DNA of 64,000 bases. Origin: Escherichia coli (GTDB lineage Bacteria > Pseudomonadota > Gammaproteobacteria > Enterobacterales > Enterobacteriaceae). Under the pieces are notes generated by a model. That model saw only the letters and a list, made by a program, of their open reading frames with translations. It searched no databases and had not been told where the DNA came from. The stretch lies in assembly GCF_003334765.1 (NCBI RefSeq), contig NZ_QOWT01000003.1; one strand, written 5' to 3'. Below are positions 26,548 through 34,600 of the stretch, piece by piece; within the stretch, counting starts at the first letter, position 1; each line of letters starts with the position of its first letter. The position numbers were made by a program, and so were the translations under genes.

Positions 26548-27279
26548 ATGAAAAAATGGAAAGTACGTAGCGCGTTGATAGCATTAGTCGTGCTGCTGGC
26601 CGGTTGTTCCAGTAATGCGCAGTATAATAGCAGTACATCGGGCAATGTCGGCACCGCCTGGGGTGGGGATGTGCACTCATCGGTTCAGGGCGTATCTGCT
26701 GAGCGAGCCTGGCGCGATCCGGCAGAGATGATCGTTATTAGTTATTCGACTACTGTTCCTTCGGGCTACGACCGCGTTTATAGCATTCGTATTAACGAAC
26801 TGGAATATGCTATTCGCGATGGTAATTTTAATTCTCTACCTATTACGCGGGTTTATGATTCATCCAATAATGAACCACGCTATATTGTCCATGCCAGAAT
26901 CGGAATGAATTATCAATTATATATCCGTAATTACAGTCGTAACACCAACTACGAGATCGTTGCTACGGTTGATGGCCTGGATGTGCTGAACGGCAAGCAA
27001 GGTTCGCTGAATAACAATGGCTATATTGTGAATGCCGGAGATTCGTTAGCGATTAAAGGATTCCGCAAAGATAAACATACCGAAGCGGCTTTTCAGTTCG
27101 CCAACGTTGCTGATTCCTACGCAGCCAATTCGGCGCAAGGCGATGTGCGTAATACCGGTGTAATCGGCTTTGCCGCCTTTGAATTACAAGGCACGGCGCA
27201 AAACGCGCTGCCACCGTGCTCTGGACAAGCGTTTCCGGCGGACAACAATGGCTATGCGCCGCCACCGTGTCGGAAATAG
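26548..27279 (+). CDS. uncharacterised lipoprotein (243 aa), not part of K-12 gene order as I know it
   Basis: RBS GAGGGA 8 nt upstream of ATG; signal peptide and lipobox MKKWKVRSALIALVVLLAG-C; N/Y/S-rich body; C-terminal ALPPCSGQAFPADNNGYAPPPCRK with two PPC motifs; lower GC than flanking genes; flanked by terminators. Confidence 0.75.
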   Translation: MKKWKVRSALIALVVLLAGCSSNAQYNSSTSGNVGTAWGGDVHSSVQGVSAERAWRDPAEMIVISYSTTVPSGYDRVYSIRINELEYAIRDGNFNSLPITRVYDSSNNEPRYIVHARIGMNYQLYIRNYSRNTNYEIVATVDGLDVLNGKQGSLNNNGYIVNAGDSLAIKGFRKDKHTEAAFQFANVADSYAANSAQGDVRNTGVIGFAAFELQGTAQNALPPCSGQAFPADNNGYAPPPCRK

Positions 27280-29418: not shown

Positions 29419-31410
29419 ATGTCCTCACGTAAAGAGCTTGCCAATGCTATTCGTGCGCTGAGCATGGACGCAGTACAGAAAGCCAAATCCGGTCACCCGG
29501 GTGCCCCTATGGGTATGGCTGACATTGCCGAAGTCCTGTGGCGTGATTTCCTGAAACACAACCCGCAGAATCCGTCCTGGGCTGACCGTGACCGCTTCGT
29601 GCTGTCCAACGGCCACGGCTCCATGCTGATCTACAGCCTGCTGCACCTCACCGGTTACGATCTGCCGATGGAAGAACTGAAAAACTTCCGTCAGCTGCAC
29701 TCTAAAACTCCGGGCCACCCGGAAGTAGGTTATACCGCTGGTGTGGAAACCACCACCGGTCCGCTGGGTCAGGGTATTGCCAACGCAGTCGGTATGGCGA
29801 TTGCAGAAAAAACGCTGGCGGCGCAGTTTAACCGTCCGGGCCACGACATTGTCGACCACTACACCTACGCCTTCATGGGTGACGGCTGCATGATGGAAGG
29901 CATCTCCCACGAAGTTTGCTCTCTGGCGGGTACGCTGAAGCTGGGTAAACTGATTGCGTTCTACGATGACAACGGTATCTCTATCGATGGTCACGTTGAA
30001 GGCTGGTTCACCGACGACACCGCAATGCGTTTCGAAGCTTACGGCTGGCACGTTATTCGCGACATCGACGGTCATGACGCGGCATCCATCAAACGCGCAG
30101 TAGAAGAAGCGCGCGCAGTGACTGACAAACCGTCCCTGCTGATGTGCAAAACCATCATCGGTTTCGGTTCCCCGAACAAAGCCGGTACCCACGACTCCCA
30201 CGGTGCGCCACTGGGCGACGCTGAAATTGCCCTGACCCGCGAACAGCTGGGCTGGAAATATGCACCGTTCGAAATCCCGTCTGAAATCTATGCTCAGTGG
30301 GATGCGAAAGAAGCAGGCCAGGCGAAAGAATCCGCATGGAACGAGAAATTCGCTGCTTACGCGAAAGCTTATCCGCAGGAAGCCGCTGAATTTACCCGCC
30401 GTATGAAAGGCGAAATGCCGTCTGACTTCGACGCCAAAGCGAAAGAGTTCATCGCTAAACTGCAGGCTAACCCGGCGAAAATCGCCAGCCGTAAAGCGTC
30501 TCAGAATGCGATTGAAGCGTTCGGCCCGCTGTTGCCGGAATTCCTCGGCGGCTCTGCTGACCTGGCACCGTCTAACCTGACCCTGTGGTCTGGTTCTAAA
30601 GCAATCAACGAAGATGCTGCGGGTAACTACATCCACTACGGTGTTCGCGAGTTCGGTATGACCGCGATTGCTAACGGTATCTCCCTGCACGGTGGCTTCC
30701 TGCCGTACACCTCCACCTTCCTGATGTTCGTGGAATACGCACGTAACGCCGTACGTATGGCTGCGCTGATGAAACAGCGTCAGGTGATGGTTTACACCCA
30801 CGACTCCATCGGTCTGGGCGAAGATGGCCCGACTCACCAGCCGGTTGAGCAGGTCGCTTCACTGCGCGTGACCCCGAACATGTCTACATGGCGTCCGTGT
30901 GACCAGGTTGAATCTGCAGTGGCATGGAAATACGGCGTTGAGCGTCAGGACGGCCCGACTGCGCTTATCCTCTCCCGTCAGAACCTGGCGCAGCAGGAAC
31001 GTACTGAAGAGCAGCTGGCAAACATCGCGCGCGGTGGTTATGTGCTGAAAGACTGTGCCGGTCAGCCGGAACTGATCTTCATCGCGACCGGTTCTGAAGT
31101 TGAACTGGCGGTTGCTGCCTACGAAAAACTGACTGCTGAAGGCGTGAAAGCGCGCGTGGTTTCCATGCCGTCTACCGACGCGTTCGACAAGCAGGATGCG
31201 GCTTACCGTGAGTCTGTACTGCCGAAAGCGGTTACTGCACGCGTTGCGGTGGAAGCGGGTATTGCTGACTACTGGTACAAGTATGTTGGCCTGAACGGTG
31301 CTATCGTCGGCATGACCACCTTCGGTGAATCTGCTCCGGCAGAGCTGCTGTTTGAAGAGTTCGGCTTCACCGTTGACAACGTTGTTGCGAAAGCAAAAGA
31401 ACTGCTGTAA
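29419..31410 (+). CDS. tktA: transketolase 1 (663 aa)
   Basis: [41 protein letters not shown]... recognised; GGAG RBS. Confidence 0.98.
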
Positions 31411-31432
31411 TCGGTAAGATGCTTTGTGAGAA

Positions 31433-31457
31433 GGGCCGCGAAAGCGGCCCTTTTTTT
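31433..31457. terminator. tktA rho-independent terminator; its T-tract overlaps the stop codon of the convergent SPFH gene
   Basis: GGGCCGCGAAAGCGGCCC hairpin followed by TTTTTTT. Confidence 0.85.
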
Positions 31458-32364
31458 ACTTAGTAGAGATAAACGGAACTGTGCTGCCGGGGATCATGGT
31501 ATCGGGCAGTTTACCGTCCCAACGTTCGGCAGTGGTGAGGGCTACAAGTCCGGGATTATCCCGCAGAGCTTCACCGCGCAGGCGGATCGCTTCTGCTTCA
31601 GCCGCACTTTTTAAACGAATAGTTTCAGCCTCTGCCGCGCCTCTTACGCGAATAGTTTCCGCTTCTGCTTTAGCTGCCGCCAGTTTACTGTCTGCTTCTG
31701 CCTGGGCCTGAGTTACCGCTATTTGCGCCTGGATTTTCTCTGTTTCCAGATTTTGCTTACGCGTGGCAATGGCGACTTCTGCTTTCATTCGGTCTTCAAT
31801 CGACTTTTCATAAGCGTCAGAAAAATCAATATTTTCAATCTGGACCCCGTCAATTACCACTGGCCCAACAACGGCTTTGCGCATGGCATTTTGCAGATCC
31901 TGAACCAGTTTTGTACGATCCTGTACCGCGCTGATGGCGGTATATTGGCCGAAAACGTTCTCCAGTTGAGTTGGCAACTGACGGACAATCAGACGATCTT
32001 TTAATGCTTCAATGGTGTTGTAGGTGGTATAAACCGCGCCTGCTTCTGAAGGTTTAATGTGGAAGCTGACTGATACTGTCATTTGTGCCGGTTGCTGGTC
32101 GCGGCTGTAGGCCTGTAATCCCTGATAGACCACAGCCTGATTACGCGTGGAAATTTTCTCCACGCTTTCCATAAACGGGATCTTAAAACCCAGACCCGGC
32201 TCGGCAACTTTTACGATTTTTCCGTAGCGCAGCAAAATGCCGCGTTCACCTTCATTAACGGTGTAATACGAGAGAAATGGCAGCACAACCACGGCAAGCA
32301 CGCCAATGGCGATAGCAAGAGATTTTTGTGGGCGAAATGAGGTTAATGAAACAGGTGCTTTCAT
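31456..32364 (-). CDS. SPFH/band-7 (prohibitin/HflC-like) membrane protein (302 aa from ATG; ORF extends to a GTG at 32400)
   Basis: N-terminal TM segment LAIAIGVLAVVVLPF, PHB-type core GERGILLRYGKI..., C-terminal Ala/Glu-rich coiled coil AEAETIRVRGAAEAETIRLKSAAEAEAIRLRGEA; AAGGAAG RBS before the ATG at 32364; not one of the four K-12 SPFH genes (hflK, hflC, qmcA, yqiK). Confidence 0.85.
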   Translation of the reverse strand: MKAPVSLTSFRPQKSLAIAIGVLAVVVLPFLSYYTVNEGERGILLRYGKIVKVAEPGLGFKIPFMESVEKISTRNQAVVYQGLQAYSRDQQPAQMTVSVSFHIKPSEAGAVYTTYNTIEALKDRLIVRQLPTQLENVFGQYTAISAVQDRTKLVQDLQNAMRKAVVGPVVIDGVQIENIDFSDAYEKSIEDRMKAEVAIATRKQNLETEKIQAQIAVTQAQAEADSKLAAAKAEAETIRVRGAAEAETIRLKSAAEAEAIRLRGEALRDNPGLVALTTAERWDGKLPDTMIPGSTVPFISTK

Positions 32365-32740
32365 ATGAATCTTCCTTGAGTAAAGTGGGGAATATGTCAC
32401 ATGAGGTAAGGAGAAAATAGCCGACAGGTGAGAATTCAGAATCTATAAAGGGGTATAGCGAAAAAACGTTGCATTAAAAAAGTATGTTTTCGGATATTCA
32501 ATAAATAAATGGCGATATGCATCACAAATACAATAACAAACAAAATGTTGATTTTGTGATAAACATAACAAATACAAAGTTGACTTTAAAAATATCAATT
32601 TCATATTGTTGTTATTTAAGGTTTTATTATTTTGGTTTATGGGGTTTTTCTTCTCGCGTACCCAATTGCTTTCATTAAACCGCACGAGTATTTTATTTTT
32701 ACCGCCGGACGGTACCCTAAAAATAAAATAAGGATAATTT

Positions 32741-33184
32741 ATGCGGCTTAGTGATTATTTTCCAGAATCATCAATCTCAGTTATACATTCAGCAAAAGAT
32801 TGGCAGGAAGCTATCGATTTCTCGATGGCATCATTGCTGGATAAAAACTATATCAGCGAGAATTACATTCAGGCAATTAAAGATTCCACCATTAACAATG
32901 GCCCTTATTATATTCTCGCGCCAGGTGTGGCAATGCCTCATGCGCGACCGGAATGTGGGGCGCTTAAAACCGGGATGTCTTTGACGTTACTTAAACAAGG
33001 CGTTTATTTTCCGGGGAATGACGAACCGATTAAATTACTCATCGGGCTTTCTGCTGCCGATGCCGATTCGCACATTGGCGCTATTCAGGCGTTAAGTGAA
33101 TTACTGTGCGAAGAAGAAATACTCGAACAACTCTTAACAGCATCATCAGAAAAACAATTAGCGGACATTATCAGCTGCGGATAA
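32741..33184 (+). CDS. cmtB: PTS EIIA component, mannitol-family (cryptic), 147 aa
   Basis: MRLSDYFPESSISVIHSAKDWQEAIDFSMASLLDK... recognised. Confidence 0.9.
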   Translation: MRLSDYFPESSISVIHSAKDWQEAIDFSMASLLDKNYISENYIQAIKDSTINNGPYYILAPGVAMPHARPECGALKTGMSLTLLKQGVYFPGNDEPIKLLIGLSAADADSHIGAIQALSELLCEEEILEQLLTASSEKQLADIISCG

Positions 33185-33211: not shown

Positions 33212-34600
33212 ATGGAAAACAAGTCTGCTCGTGCAAAGGTCCAGGCTTTTGGGGGCTTTTTGACGGCAATGGTCATCCCCAATATCGGTGCTTTTATTGC
33301 CTGGGGTTTTATTACTGCATTATTTATTCCTACTGGTTGGCTGCCGAATGAACATTTCGCCAAAATTGTCGGCCCGATGATTACCTATTTATTGCCCGTG
33401 ATGATTGGTTCTACCGGTGGTCATCTGGTCGGCGGTAAACGCGGCGCGGTCATGGGCGGAATTGGTACGATTGGTGTGATCGTCGGCGCAGAGATCCCGA
33501 TGTTCCTTGGCTCAATGATTATGGGGCCGCTCGGTGGGCTGGTCATAAAATATGTCGATAAGGCACTGGAAAAACGCATACCTGCTGGTTTTGAGATGGT
33601 TATCAATAACTTCTCATTAGGTATCGCGGGGATGCTCCTTTGTCTGCTGGGTTTTGAAGTGATCGGCCCGGCGGTGTTAATTGCCAATACTTTCGTCAAA
33701 GAGTGTATTGAGGCGCTGGTACATGCGGGTTATCTGCCTCTGCTGTCAGTCATCAATGAACCGGCGAAAGTGCTTTTCCTTAATAATGCGATCGATCAGG
33801 GCGTCTATTATCCGCTGGGAATGCAACAGGCTTCGGTTAACGGTAAATCCATCTTCTTTATGGTGGCCTCTAACCCAGGTCCGGGCCTGGGGCTGCTGCT
33901 GGCGTTTACCTTGTTTGGTAAAGGGATGAGTAAACGTTCTGCGCCCGGGGCGATGATTATTCACTTCCTCGGTGGGATCCACGAACTGTATTTCCCATAT
34001 GTGCTGATGAAGCCGCTGACTATTATTGCCATGATTGCGGGCGGTATGTCTGGCACCTGGATGTTTAACTTACTGGACGGTGGTCTGGTGGCTGGCCCAA
34101 GTCCGGGGTCTATCTTTGCTTACCTGGCGCTGACGCCGAAAGGTTCGTTCCTGGCGACAATTGCCGGTGTTACGGTAGGTACCCTGGTGTCCTTTGCTAT
34201 CACTTCGCTGATACTGAAGATGGAAAAAACGGTGGAAACGGAGAGCGAAGATGAGTTTGCTCAGTCAGCCAATGCGGTTAAGGCGATGAAACAAGAGGGT
34301 GCATTCTCGTTAAGCCGGGTTAAGCGTATCGCCTTTGTTTGCGATGCGGGGATGGGCTCCAGCGCGATGGGCGCAACCACCTTCCGTAAACGTCTGGAAA
34401 AAGCGGGGCTGGCAATTGAAGTAAAACATTACGCGATAGAAAACGTGCCTGCGGATGCGGATATCGTCGTTACTCATGCCAGTCTGGAAGGGCGCGTGAA
34501 ACGTGTGACGGATAAATCACTGATATTGATTAATAACTATATTGGCGATCCAAAACTCGACACTTTATTTAATCAATTAACCGCAGAACATAAACACTGA
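33212..34600 (+). CDS. cmtA: PTS EIICB component, mannitol-family (cryptic), 462 aa
   Basis: 462-aa polytopic ORF with C-terminal EIIB domain (CDAGMGSSAM). Confidence 0.9.
   Translation: MENKSARAKVQAFGGFLTAMVIPNIGAFIAWGFITALFIPTGWLPNEHFAKIVGPMITYLLPVMIGSTGGHLVGGKRGAVMGGIGTIGVIVGAEIPMFLGSMIMGPLGGLVIKYVDKALEKRIPAGFEMVINNFSLGIAGMLLCLLGFEVIGPAVLIANTFVKECIEALVHAGYLPLLSVINEPAKVLFLNNAIDQGVYYPLGMQQASVNGKSIFFMVASNPGPGLGLLLAFTLFGKGMSKRSAPGAMIIHFLGGIHELYFPYVLMKPLTIIAMIAGGMSGTWMFNLLDGGLVAGPSPGSIFAYLALTPKGSFLATIAGVTVGTLVSFAITSLILKMEKTVETESEDEFAQSANAVKAMKQEGAFSLSRVKRIAFVCDAGMGSSAMGATTFRKRLEKAGLAIEVKHYAIENVPADADIVVTHASLEGRVKRVTDKSLILINNYIGDPKLDTLFNQLTAEHKH

Follow-up and report, generated by a model that had tools for sequence, protein, structure and literature searches.

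An SPFH/Band-7 gene convergent with tktA in Escherichia coli, absent from K-12

In papers on membrane microdomains the SPFH proteins of Escherichia coli are put at four (e.g. PMC6788730, PMC10434171), and the presence of a further SPFH-type reading frame between tktA and cmtB raises the questions of what kind of protein it encodes, how it came to lie there, and what it might do. The gene lies in a stretch of 64,000 nucleotides of E. coli contig NZ_QOWT01000003.1 (hereafter the window), and occupies positions 31456-32364 of the minus strand, read from its ATG through 302 codons to a TAA stop (31456-31458). The initial annotation recognized it as an SPFH/Band-7 gene unlike those of K-12 and implied that it was novel. 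The protein is indeed none of HflK, HflC, QmcA, and YqiK, but it is not new: the identical protein, with the same CDS coordinates, is present in RefSeq as WP_000646940.1, 'prohibitin family protein' (strain ECCWS199), and E. coli E22 was tabled with an SPFH4 protein besides the four K-12 types in 2009 (Hinderhofer et al. 2009, PMC2636767). Its family, the absence of an NfeD partner, and its presence in some E. coli are thus already on record. A literature search by accession, by the name 'prohibitin family protein', and by locus neighbours returned no experimental study of the protein or a close orthologue.

The architecture follows the layout of the SPFH superfamily, with an N-terminal anchor, an alpha/beta SPFH core, and a long C-terminal helix, and the anchor, Band-7 domain, and coiled-coil tail of the initial annotation are borne out by hydropathy, Pfam, and AlphaFold. 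The Band_7 family (PF01145) matches residues 35-210 (31735-32262, minus strand; E=5.6e-32) across model positions 2-176 of 176, and this domain has fold matches to HflC, prohibitin, erlin, stomatin, and QmcA. A single predicted transmembrane or signal-anchor helix spans residues 15-33 (32266-32322, minus strand; hydropathy 2.33), and the AlphaFold model (pLDDT 83) places a transmembrane helix at residues 12-32, the core at 33-181, and one long helix at 183-269. A bacterial lipoprotein was considered and ruled out because the protein contains no Cys anywhere and so has no lipobox. The 87-residue helix (31558-31818, minus strand; pLDDT 76-94), predicted to form a coiled-coil wall, includes four tandem 33-nt units (31587-31718, minus strand; spacings 33, 33, and 33) that encode 11-residue repeats of the AEAExIRLxGx type and make up the Ala/Glu-rich tail. 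Copy number of the 11-residue repeat varies among genera and alleles; in the protein alignment Escherichia has one more unit than other genera, and an E. albertii variant (P0014) has a 22-residue gap across the repeat region. The protein ends in a conserved motif, LTTAERWDGKLPxTMIPGxxVPFI (residues 270-302; 31459-31557, minus strand), defined by alignment, whose invariant or near-invariant columns are W282, G284, L286, P287, P292, P297, and F298; over the last 30 residues the model is of low confidence (pLDDT below 50).

The gene fits tightly against its neighbour. tktA ends at 31410, and its intrinsic terminator occupies 31430-31457 of the plus strand, with a GC stem at 31433-31439/31444-31450, a GAAA loop, and a T7 tract at 31451-31457. 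The hairpin (31430-31453) was missed by a terminator scanner and was confirmed by folding (dG -25.9 kcal/mol, z=-4.7 on the plus strand; -18.1, z -4.3 on the minus strand). The stop codon of the SPFH gene shares the last two T residues of the T-tract, just the overlap that had been described from inspection, and on the minus strand the same hairpin lies 3' of this stop but has a weak U-tail. The sole Rfam match in a scan of 31300-32850 fell below threshold (30.5 bits vs 43) on this terminator, and we read it as probable terminator likeness. At the other end, a strong Shine-Dalgarno sequence, AAGGAAG (32371-32377, minus strand), is read from the sequence 6 nt upstream of the ATG (32362-32364), and the AT-rich region (31% GC) at 32365-32740, in which repeated motifs occupy 32514-32587, would serve as a divergent control region for the SPFH gene and cmtB.

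Comparison with K-12 shows that the gene is absent there, as the initial annotation had it: in MG1655 tkt and cmtB are direct neighbours with a 313-bp spacer between them, and of the tktA-cmtB interval of the window just the final 78 bp (32663-32740) are shared with it. The two checks that could have overturned that annotation, for the same gene in K-12 and for a failure to match Band_7, both came out in its favour. The polymorphic segment extends from 31412 to 32662, with identity resuming at 32663, and in K-12-type genomes a 235-bp sequence stands in place of this ~1.25 kb. The K-12-type sequence consists of its own terminator and a diverged remnant of the AT-rich spacer; a search of the K-12 spacer for SPFH remnants found only a diverged terminator hairpin and a stretch of ~45 nt resembling 32486-32530 of the window. 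The end-points of the deletion are imprecise because the AT-rich remainder is ~30-40% diverged. Among 5426 complete E. coli genomes the SPFH gene is found in 1831, always in single copy, and the 235-bp allele in 3583, such that a description of it as a strain-specific accessory gene does not hold, all the more as it occupies the same locus in other species and genera. The hflKC genes are present in all 5426, and every one of the 1831 carriers therefore has both; the true hflX-hflK-hflC locus lies elsewhere than tktA-cmtB.

The absence of the gene from two-thirds of E. coli could suggest that it is a decaying or silent remnant without current function, its polymorphism reflecting neutral loss. 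The adjoining 31% GC spacer is of a kind often silenced by H-NS, and silencing might thus be inferred, and a consensus scan gave no promoter on the strand of the SPFH gene, with consensus-level matches on the plus strand only. The coding sequence argues the other way. Among the matches listed, all 39 of the full-length rows show a gene of 909 bp that aligns without gaps and carries an intact CDS annotation, and dN/dS against orthologues is 0.016-0.06 (0.02-0.06 when rounded) at divergences up to saturation, to which the strong Shine-Dalgarno sequence can be added. The gene is intact, monocistronic, and under purifying selection, and a functionless remnant is highly improbable. Two 'partial' protein clusters (P0034 and P0012) were considered as truncated alleles and rejected, as they look like truncated records.

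Chromosomal in Escherichia and in some nearby members of the Enterobacteriaceae, the gene is always convergent with tktA. The same position is seen in E. albertii, E. whittamii, Escherichia sp. MOD1-EC7003, Kluyvera, and Pseudocitrobacter; in Klebsiella spallanzanii the gene adjoins epd as it does in Kluyvera, on a contig that ends before tktA. Synonymous divergence of the gene grows with species distance, with dS of 0.06 within E. coli, 0.28 to E. whittamii, 0.71 to E. albertii, and above 1.4 to Pseudocitrobacter and Kluyvera. Because the locus is shared across genera and the gene is present in about one-third of E. coli, it is best read as ancestral; the simplest reading of the sequences would be a vertically inherited gene that was lost in K-12.

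Homologues are also found on mobile elements. Full-length phage homologues fall in phrog_200 (E=4e-63), and those of the jumbo phages GAP32, fHe-Yen9-04, Serratia BF, and CBB, and of phage Skarpretter ('band 7 protein'), are 45-53% identical to the protein of the window. IncFII Enterobacter plasmids carry a copy at 74% identity within an F-type tra operon, between traB and traV, and further homologues are present on Pseudomonas plasmids and in an ICE-like region of Klebsiella oxytoca. These phage and plasmid proteins belong to the same subfamily along their full length (45-74% identity) and share the C-terminal motif. The motif also occurs as a separate module, phrog_38808 (E=1.7e-19), that ends phage proteins, and phiP27 L05 and Stx phages match residues 238-302 only, in proteins encoded next to int/xis. 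We note that some phage homologues are annotated 'lipoprotein'. Both the full-length mobile copies and the isolated C-terminal module are compatible with a mobile-element gene that became fixed at tktA, whose real role lies in phage or plasmid biology – envelope protection during DNA transfer, superinfection exclusion, or manipulation of FtsH-dependent lysis-lysogeny decisions, for example – and whose chromosomal copy confers a related phenotype. The chromosomal locus, however, has no integrase genes, no att sites, no flanking direct or inverted mobile-element repeats, and no compositional shift; the gene has 49% GC against 51.5% for the window, in keeping with the earlier view that this is not foreign-looking DNA. 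Several genera preserve the synteny with tktA, dS scales with species distance, and the mobile copies, at no more than 74% identity, form a separate branch. No PADLOC-DB family matched the protein at E<=0.01, and a link to defence families is likewise wanting. We thus regard an origin of this kind as quite unlikely.

Which SPFH protein does it most resemble? The best match by sequence and fold is HflC, followed by erlins, prohibitins, HflK, stomatin, and QmcA. Profile comparison with PDB entries gives 7e-21 for HflC, 7e-12 for HflK, 2-4e-8 for prohibitins, 5e-7 for QmcA, and 1e-5 for stomatin, and Foldseek finds full-length matches to HflC (9e-18), erlin, PHB1/2, HflK, stomatin, QmcA, and flotillin cage subunits. 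With HflC the phmmer E-value is 2.4e-13 and BLASTP identity is 24% over about 300 columns, the N-terminal transmembrane segment and first strands aligning to HflC residues 5-72. Like HflC and HflK, the protein has a short cytoplasmic N-terminus by prediction, one transmembrane helix, an SPFH domain, a long helix, and a C-terminal tail; like them it lacks an NfeD partner and is predicted to face the periplasm. It differs in lacking the ~45-residue insertion of HflC, in standing alone between tktA and cmtB whereas hflK and hflC form a pair, in gamma-proteobacteria downstream of hfq-hflX, and in coexisting with hflKC in all carriers. Scores are far below the NCBIfam equivalog cut-offs (60.5 vs 134.4 bits for HflC TIGR01932; 37.4 vs 159.4 for HflK TIGR01933), and the protein is therefore not an orthologue of HflC or HflK and need not share their FtsH partner; HflKC modulates FtsH, whereas FtsH binding by the SPFH protein is only putative.

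The RefSeq name places it in the prohibitin family, yet among solved structures HflC is the better match (7e-21 vs 2e-8). There are likenesses to the prohibitins: human PHB1 and PHB2 give full-length Foldseek matches to cage subunits at 9e-16 to 1.3e-15, a 45%-identical phage homologue is annotated with an SPFH_prohibitin domain, and, as with SPFH4 proteins, it is a stand-alone protein of about 280-300 aa with an N-terminal transmembrane segment and no NfeD gene. By sequence, however, it is nearer to HflC than to eukaryotic prohibitins, and prohibitin hetero-oligomers are built from two paralogues, against the single gene seen here. SPFH4 genes as a rule stand in for HflK/C and seldom co-occur with them, with 'rare exceptions' allowed, of which E. 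coli E22 is one in the table of that survey (Hinderhofer et al. 2009, PMC2636767), whereas this gene is always found with HflKC.

No NfeD-like or other partner gene lies beside the SPFH gene, either here or in 68 related loci, where clustering of all ORFs showed only genus-level synteny in common, the Pfam lists of neighbours contain no NfeD, and there is no second SPFH gene. Two candidates were rejected since neither is conserved with the SPFH gene: sppA, ~1 kb upstream and on the opposite strand on a Pseudomonas plasmid, and the Peptidase_M48 gene loiP, on the far side of tktA. The initial annotation was thus right that an NfeD partner is missing, but not that this is unusual: NfeD partners are a trait of the stomatin and flotillin-type subfamilies and are absent for SPFH3 (HflK/C), SPFH4 (prokaryotic prohibitins), and SPFH6-12 (PMC2636767). 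QmcA-YbbJ (SPFH1) and YqiK-YqiJ (SPFH2) form operons with NfeD-type genes and face the cytoplasm, whereas HflC faces the periplasm (PMC2636767); the SPFH gene is in no such operon.

These comparisons bear on how the protein is oriented. QmcA and YqiK are membrane-anchored oligomeric scaffolds that share the superfamily and overall fold with it (QmcA Foldseek 1.2e-12, TM-score 0.56-0.61), and stomatin matches as well, so that a cytoplasm-facing scaffold, organizing microdomains at the cytoplasmic face in the manner of QmcA (stomatin type) or YqiK (flotillin type), has to be considered. Sequence similarity is weak (QmcA 9e-7; FloT model 17 bits vs a cut-off of 700) and is far stronger to the periplasm-facing HflC and HflK than to QmcA or stomatin; the missing NfeD partner, companion of the cytoplasm-facing SPFH1 and SPFH2 proteins, also speaks against it. 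The charges that flank the transmembrane helix (3 K/R and 0 D/E on the N side; 2 K/R and 2 D/E on the C side) are more equivocal. Counts of K+R alone show no clear preference across the family, being higher on the N side in 94, equal in 80, and lower in 63 of 237 homologues, whereas net charge is greater on the N flank in 202 of the 237 and favours an N-in topology. A cytoplasmic orientation is therefore unlikely, if less so than a mobile origin, and a periplasmic orientation, a topology that we infer from two lines, charge bias and homology, is likely.

In the periplasm-facing arrangement, the N-terminus would stay in the cytoplasm with helix 15-33 as an uncleaved signal anchor, and the SPFH domain and 87-residue helix would be on the periplasmic side of the inner membrane, the arrangement of HflC and HflK. 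Mitochondrial prohibitins face the intermembrane space, and the relatives with solved structures – HflK/C, PHB1/2, erlin1/2, stomatin, QmcA, and flotillin – form rings or cages. By analogy, the SPFH protein is quite likely to be a cage-forming oligomer as well, with SPFH domains on the membrane, the long helices as wall, and the C-terminal motif as cap; as there is no paired paralogue, the cage would be a homo-oligomer. By enclosing a patch of inner membrane, the cage would limit or organize the access of membrane proteins to quality-control proteases. FtsH would be the likeliest client by analogy, its substrates possibly being shielded by the cage, and we put it forward as a specific client tentatively. 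Coexistence with HflKC in every genome makes a purely redundant role unlikely; SPFH multi-deletion mutants in other bacteria have weak phenotypes (PMC13086221). Taken as a whole, an ancestral gene for a periplasm-facing cage protein is on balance the probable explanation.

A much broader proposal, and an improbable one, is that about one-third of strains, apparently including many extraintestinal pathogenic lineages, possess a fifth E. coli SPFH assembly, homo-oligomeric, periplasm-facing, and overlooked by work on K-12, that would work in parallel to HflKC on distinct clients or retune FtsH, and that this module would have been taken up again and again by phages, ICEs, and F-type conjugation operons as a means of stabilizing or manipulating the inner membrane, or FtsH-dependent decisions, in the course of DNA transfer and infection.

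Finally, current concepts are unchanged by this gene, and its significance lies rather in exposing a blind spot of K-12. Strains deleted for all SPFH genes have been built in K-12, yet one in three sequenced E. coli has, in addition to HflKC, a fifth SPFH protein that is well conserved. Related to HflC and the prohibitins but encoded by one gene and probably homo-oligomeric, this protein might offer a simpler system in which to study prohibitin-type cages, and the relatives found in phages and conjugation operons are a hint that it acts in envelope stress while DNA is being transferred.

The tktA-cmtB spacer of E. coli ECCWS199 spans 31411-32740 and contains a single long ORF at 31456-32364 on the minus strand, which encodes a 302-residue product from an ATG at 32362-32364, with AAGGAAG in the Shine-Dalgarno position six bases 5' of it. 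The 314-aa GTG-start version reported by the ORF finder is unneeded, and the ATG start is preferred. The RefSeq annotation agrees exactly, with tkt at 29419-31410, WP_000646940.1 at 31456-32364 and cmtB at 32741-33184. The tktA terminator hairpin (31430-31453; dG -25.9 kcal/mol, z = -4.7) leads into seven T residues at 31451-31457, the last two of which are shared with the TAA of the minus-strand SPFH gene (31456-31458). Because ORF, RefSeq and terminator coordinates agree, the initial annotation was correct throughout in its description of the ORF, its strand and the overlap of its stop codon with the T-tract. The gene has an ordinary GC content (49%), and no flanking repeats or mobility genes were found around it in the window. 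A sub-threshold Rfam match to AaHKsRNA20 at 31395-31462 (+) (30.5 bits, gathering score 43) spans the tktA end and its terminator, and most likely reflects mere terminator resemblance.

The protein matches Pfam Band_7 over residues 35-210 (E = 5.6e-32), has one hydrophobic segment (residues 15-33) and contains no cysteine. An AlphaFold model built with 26 homologues as input (mean pLDDT 83) comprises a TM helix (residues 12-32), an alpha/beta SPFH core (33-181), a single 87-residue helix (183-269) and a C-terminal tail of low confidence. The Ala/Glu-rich tail described in the initial annotation resolves into a tandem 11-residue unit, with four copies of the 33-nt DNA repeat at 31587-31718. In the protein alignment the Escherichia proteins have one unit more than those of Kluyvera, Klebsiella, Erwinia and Pseudomonas, and the row of an E. 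albertii variant (P0014) is gapped for 22 residues through the repeat region (alignment A2, columns 244-290). Repeat copy number in the long helix varies, one homologue (P0098) having an extra 11-residue unit in A2, and small in-frame duplications occur outside the repeat too (P0002 and P0005). Conservation outside the SPFH core is highest in the last 30 residues, LTTAERWDGKLPxTMIPGxxVPFI.

Searches of the PDB with the single sequence matched HflC (2.4e-13), HflK (1e-10), QmcA (9e-7) and prohibitins (4e-5 to 4e-4), with stomatin not listed; the family profile gave 7e-21 for HflC, 7e-12 for HflK, 2-4e-8 for prohibitins, 5e-7 for QmcA and 1e-5 for stomatin. The entire model aligns by Foldseek with subunits of every solved SPFH cage, its matches being HflC (9e-18), erlin1/2, PHB1/2, HflK, stomatin, QmcA and flotillin. 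BLASTP identity to K-12 HflC is 24% over ~300 columns, but HflC has an insertion of ~45 residues that is missing from the SPFH protein in this alignment, and the scores against the HflC and HflK models (60.5 and 37.4 bits) lie below the cut-offs of 134.4 and 159.4; the protein is neither an HflC nor an HflK orthologue. Its RefSeq name is 'prohibitin family protein', the CDD domain SPFH_prohibitin is annotated on a phage protein 45% identical to it, and it most plausibly belongs to SPFH4, the 'p-prohibitins' of Hinderhofer et al. 2009.

Of 5426 complete E. coli genomes, 1831 carry the 909-bp gene, ST95 and O25 strains among them, essentially as a single copy; in all 39 full-length matches listed it has no gaps and its annotation is that of an intact CDS. 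The K-12 allele, in which a 235-bp spacer replaces the ~1.25 kb at 31412-32662, occurs in 3583 genomes at ≥80% coverage (3595 with any match), including O157, O111 and ATCC 8739, and the two alleles jointly cover nearly all complete E. coli genomes. MG1655 has only 32663-32740 in common with the interval, confirming that the gene is absent from K-12. A strain-specific accessory gene, as the initial annotation suggested, is not what the wider distribution indicates. In E. albertii the order is cmtB-SPFH-tktA, with the SPFH gene convergent with tktA, and orthologues lie at the matching place, also convergent with tktA, in E. whittamii, Escherichia sp. MOD1-EC7003 and Pseudocitrobacter. The Kluyvera intermedia gene is between epd and tktA, convergent with tktA, and the cmt-ygg block is absent; in Klebsiella spallanzanii it adjoins epd as in Kluyvera, on a contig that stops short of tktA. 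The dS of the gene grows with species distance (0.06 within E. coli, 0.28 to E. whittamii, 0.71 to E. albertii and >1.4 to other genera), with dN/dS of 0.016-0.06 throughout. The economical reading of this shared position and of the dS values is vertical inheritance from the Escherichia ancestor and loss in lineages including K-12, which accounts for the absence there. Only a diverged terminator hairpin and a ~45-nt stretch resembling 32486-32530 are recognisable in the K-12 spacer, and the AT-rich remainder is too diverged to place deletion end-points.

Other features of the interval also vary. A REP/BIME-like insertion of 160-220 bp separates the tktA terminator from the SPFH stop codon in E. 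albertii (L009 5919-6136) and in the E. coli ST95 alleles (L095 and L096, strains ST95-32 and DETEC-P649), presumably of phylogroup B2, adding another GGGCCGC...GCGGCCC hairpin; the insertion is absent from the window allele. CmtB (32741-33184), beside the polymorphic spacer, shows 85.7-98% protein identity between Escherichia lineages, and is far more divergent than the adjacent CmtA (33212-34600; 97-99.8%). The 376-bp SPFH-cmtB spacer is only ~60% alignable between the two E. coli alleles, with the 78 bp 5' of cmtB identical. This AT-rich spacer contains, at 32514-32587, GATAnnCATnACAAATACAA and ATAACAAAnAnAAnGTTGAnTTT, each twice, and the inverted pair TCACAAATACAA / TTGATTTTGTGA, which could be candidate regulator sites for divergent SPFH and cmtB promoters. 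The locus tags of NZ_CP032237.1 skip from D3W53_RS04205 to RS04215 between the SPFH gene and cmtB, and RS04210, missing from the feature table, may be withdrawn or of a non-listed type. A second presence/absence polymorphism is located ~5 kb away, between speA and speB, where a 243-aa ORF (26548-27279, +) with a lipoprotein signal (MKKWKVRSALIALVVLLAGC...) gives no Pfam or PHROG hit; 3551 of the 5426 complete E. coli genomes carry it, and in the others just the final 77 bp of the interval are left. Its homologues are 96-97% identical in E. albertii and 57% in Kluyvera, where two loci (L003 and L005) have it in the place of speB in a third (L004).

All flanking ORFs were clustered for 68 homologous loci from Enterobacterales, Pseudomonas, Shewanella, Cellvibrio and others, and no conserved neighbour was found among them beyond genus-level synteny. 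NfeD appears in none of the neighbour lists, in agreement with the initial annotation, which had regarded the missing partner as unusual; it is instead expected, since NfeD partners were identified for SPFH1, 2 and 5 only, with none for SPFH3, 4 or 6-12 (Hinderhofer et al., PMC2636767). A signal peptide peptidase gene, sppA, lies ~1 kb upstream of the homologue on Pseudomonas plasmid p1160-VIM (L014 3991-4926), on the opposite strand, and is not conserved in the other loci. SppA falls in the ClpP-like serine protease class, as does the protease domain of long NfeD proteins.

The N-terminal flank of the TM segment has three K/R and no acidic residues, the C-terminal flank two of each, and net charge is higher on the N-flank in 202 of 237 homologues. 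The TM segment and first strands also align with those of HflC, which faces the periplasm (PMC2636767). From this bias and this alignment, the TM segment would be expected to act as an N-in signal anchor that leaves the SPFH domain and the long helix on the periplasmic side, an orientation that appears reasonably likely and has been proposed for SPFH4 (Hinderhofer et al., PMC2636767). All solved proteins of SPFH architecture, with entries among the Foldseek matches, form closed or nautilus-like cages, and by this analogy the protein quite likely forms one too. Being encoded by a lone gene, it would be expected to build a homo-oligomeric cage, walled by the repeat-bearing helix and capped by the conserved C-terminal motif. 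As client, the leading candidate would be FtsH, on the model of HflK/C, prohibitins and QmcA (PMC2636767), a link we regard as possible rather than probable. The hflK-hflC pair is present in 5426 of 5426 E. coli genomes, and each SPFH carrier thus has both systems; the rare co-occurrence of SPFH4 and HflKC (Hinderhofer et al., PMC2636767) does not hold for E. coli.

The family comprises 253 clusters (50% identity) at E < 1e-30 and 5727 at E < 1e-3, and is mobile as well as chromosomal. Copies 72-74% identical are found on IncFII plasmids of Enterobacter and Kosakonia, among them a 74%-identical 'prohibitin family protein' encoded between traB and traV within the F-type tra operon of pMS7884B from Enterobacter hormaechei (L013 5905-6789), which is flanked by two small hypothetical genes. 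Pseudomonas plasmids encode copies 58% identical, and a Klebsiella oxytoca ICE-like region one of 72%. PHROG phrog_200 is matched over the full length (4e-63), with full-length homologues of 45-53% identity in jumbo phages GAP32, fHe-Yen9-04, Serratia BF and CBB and in phage Skarpretter, and proteins in the same identity range in Rhizobium phages. The C-terminal ~60-65 residues alone (repeat and conserved motif) form phrog_38808, which recurs in phages at ~50% identity; this module ends the 275-aa L05 protein beside int/xis in phiP27 (L098 2371-3198) and is also present in Stx-converting (Stx2) and P1-like phages. Phage proteins with the module are annotated variously as lipoprotein, serine protease or SPFH protein; the first of these labels does not apply to the window protein, as it has no cysteine. 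No PADLOC defence model matches the SPFH protein, and literature searches returned no experiments on it.

The finding is thus real and accurately described, and the gene already carries an annotation in >1800 complete genomes; its subfamily was described in 2009, and E. coli E22 was tabulated with SPFH4 on top of the four K-12 types (Hinderhofer et al., supplementary table, PMC2636767). Its remaining interest is twofold: natural E. coli have in it a fifth SPFH protein, a conserved one, which K-12-based SPFH studies overlook, and relatives of this protein are carried by phages and conjugative elements.
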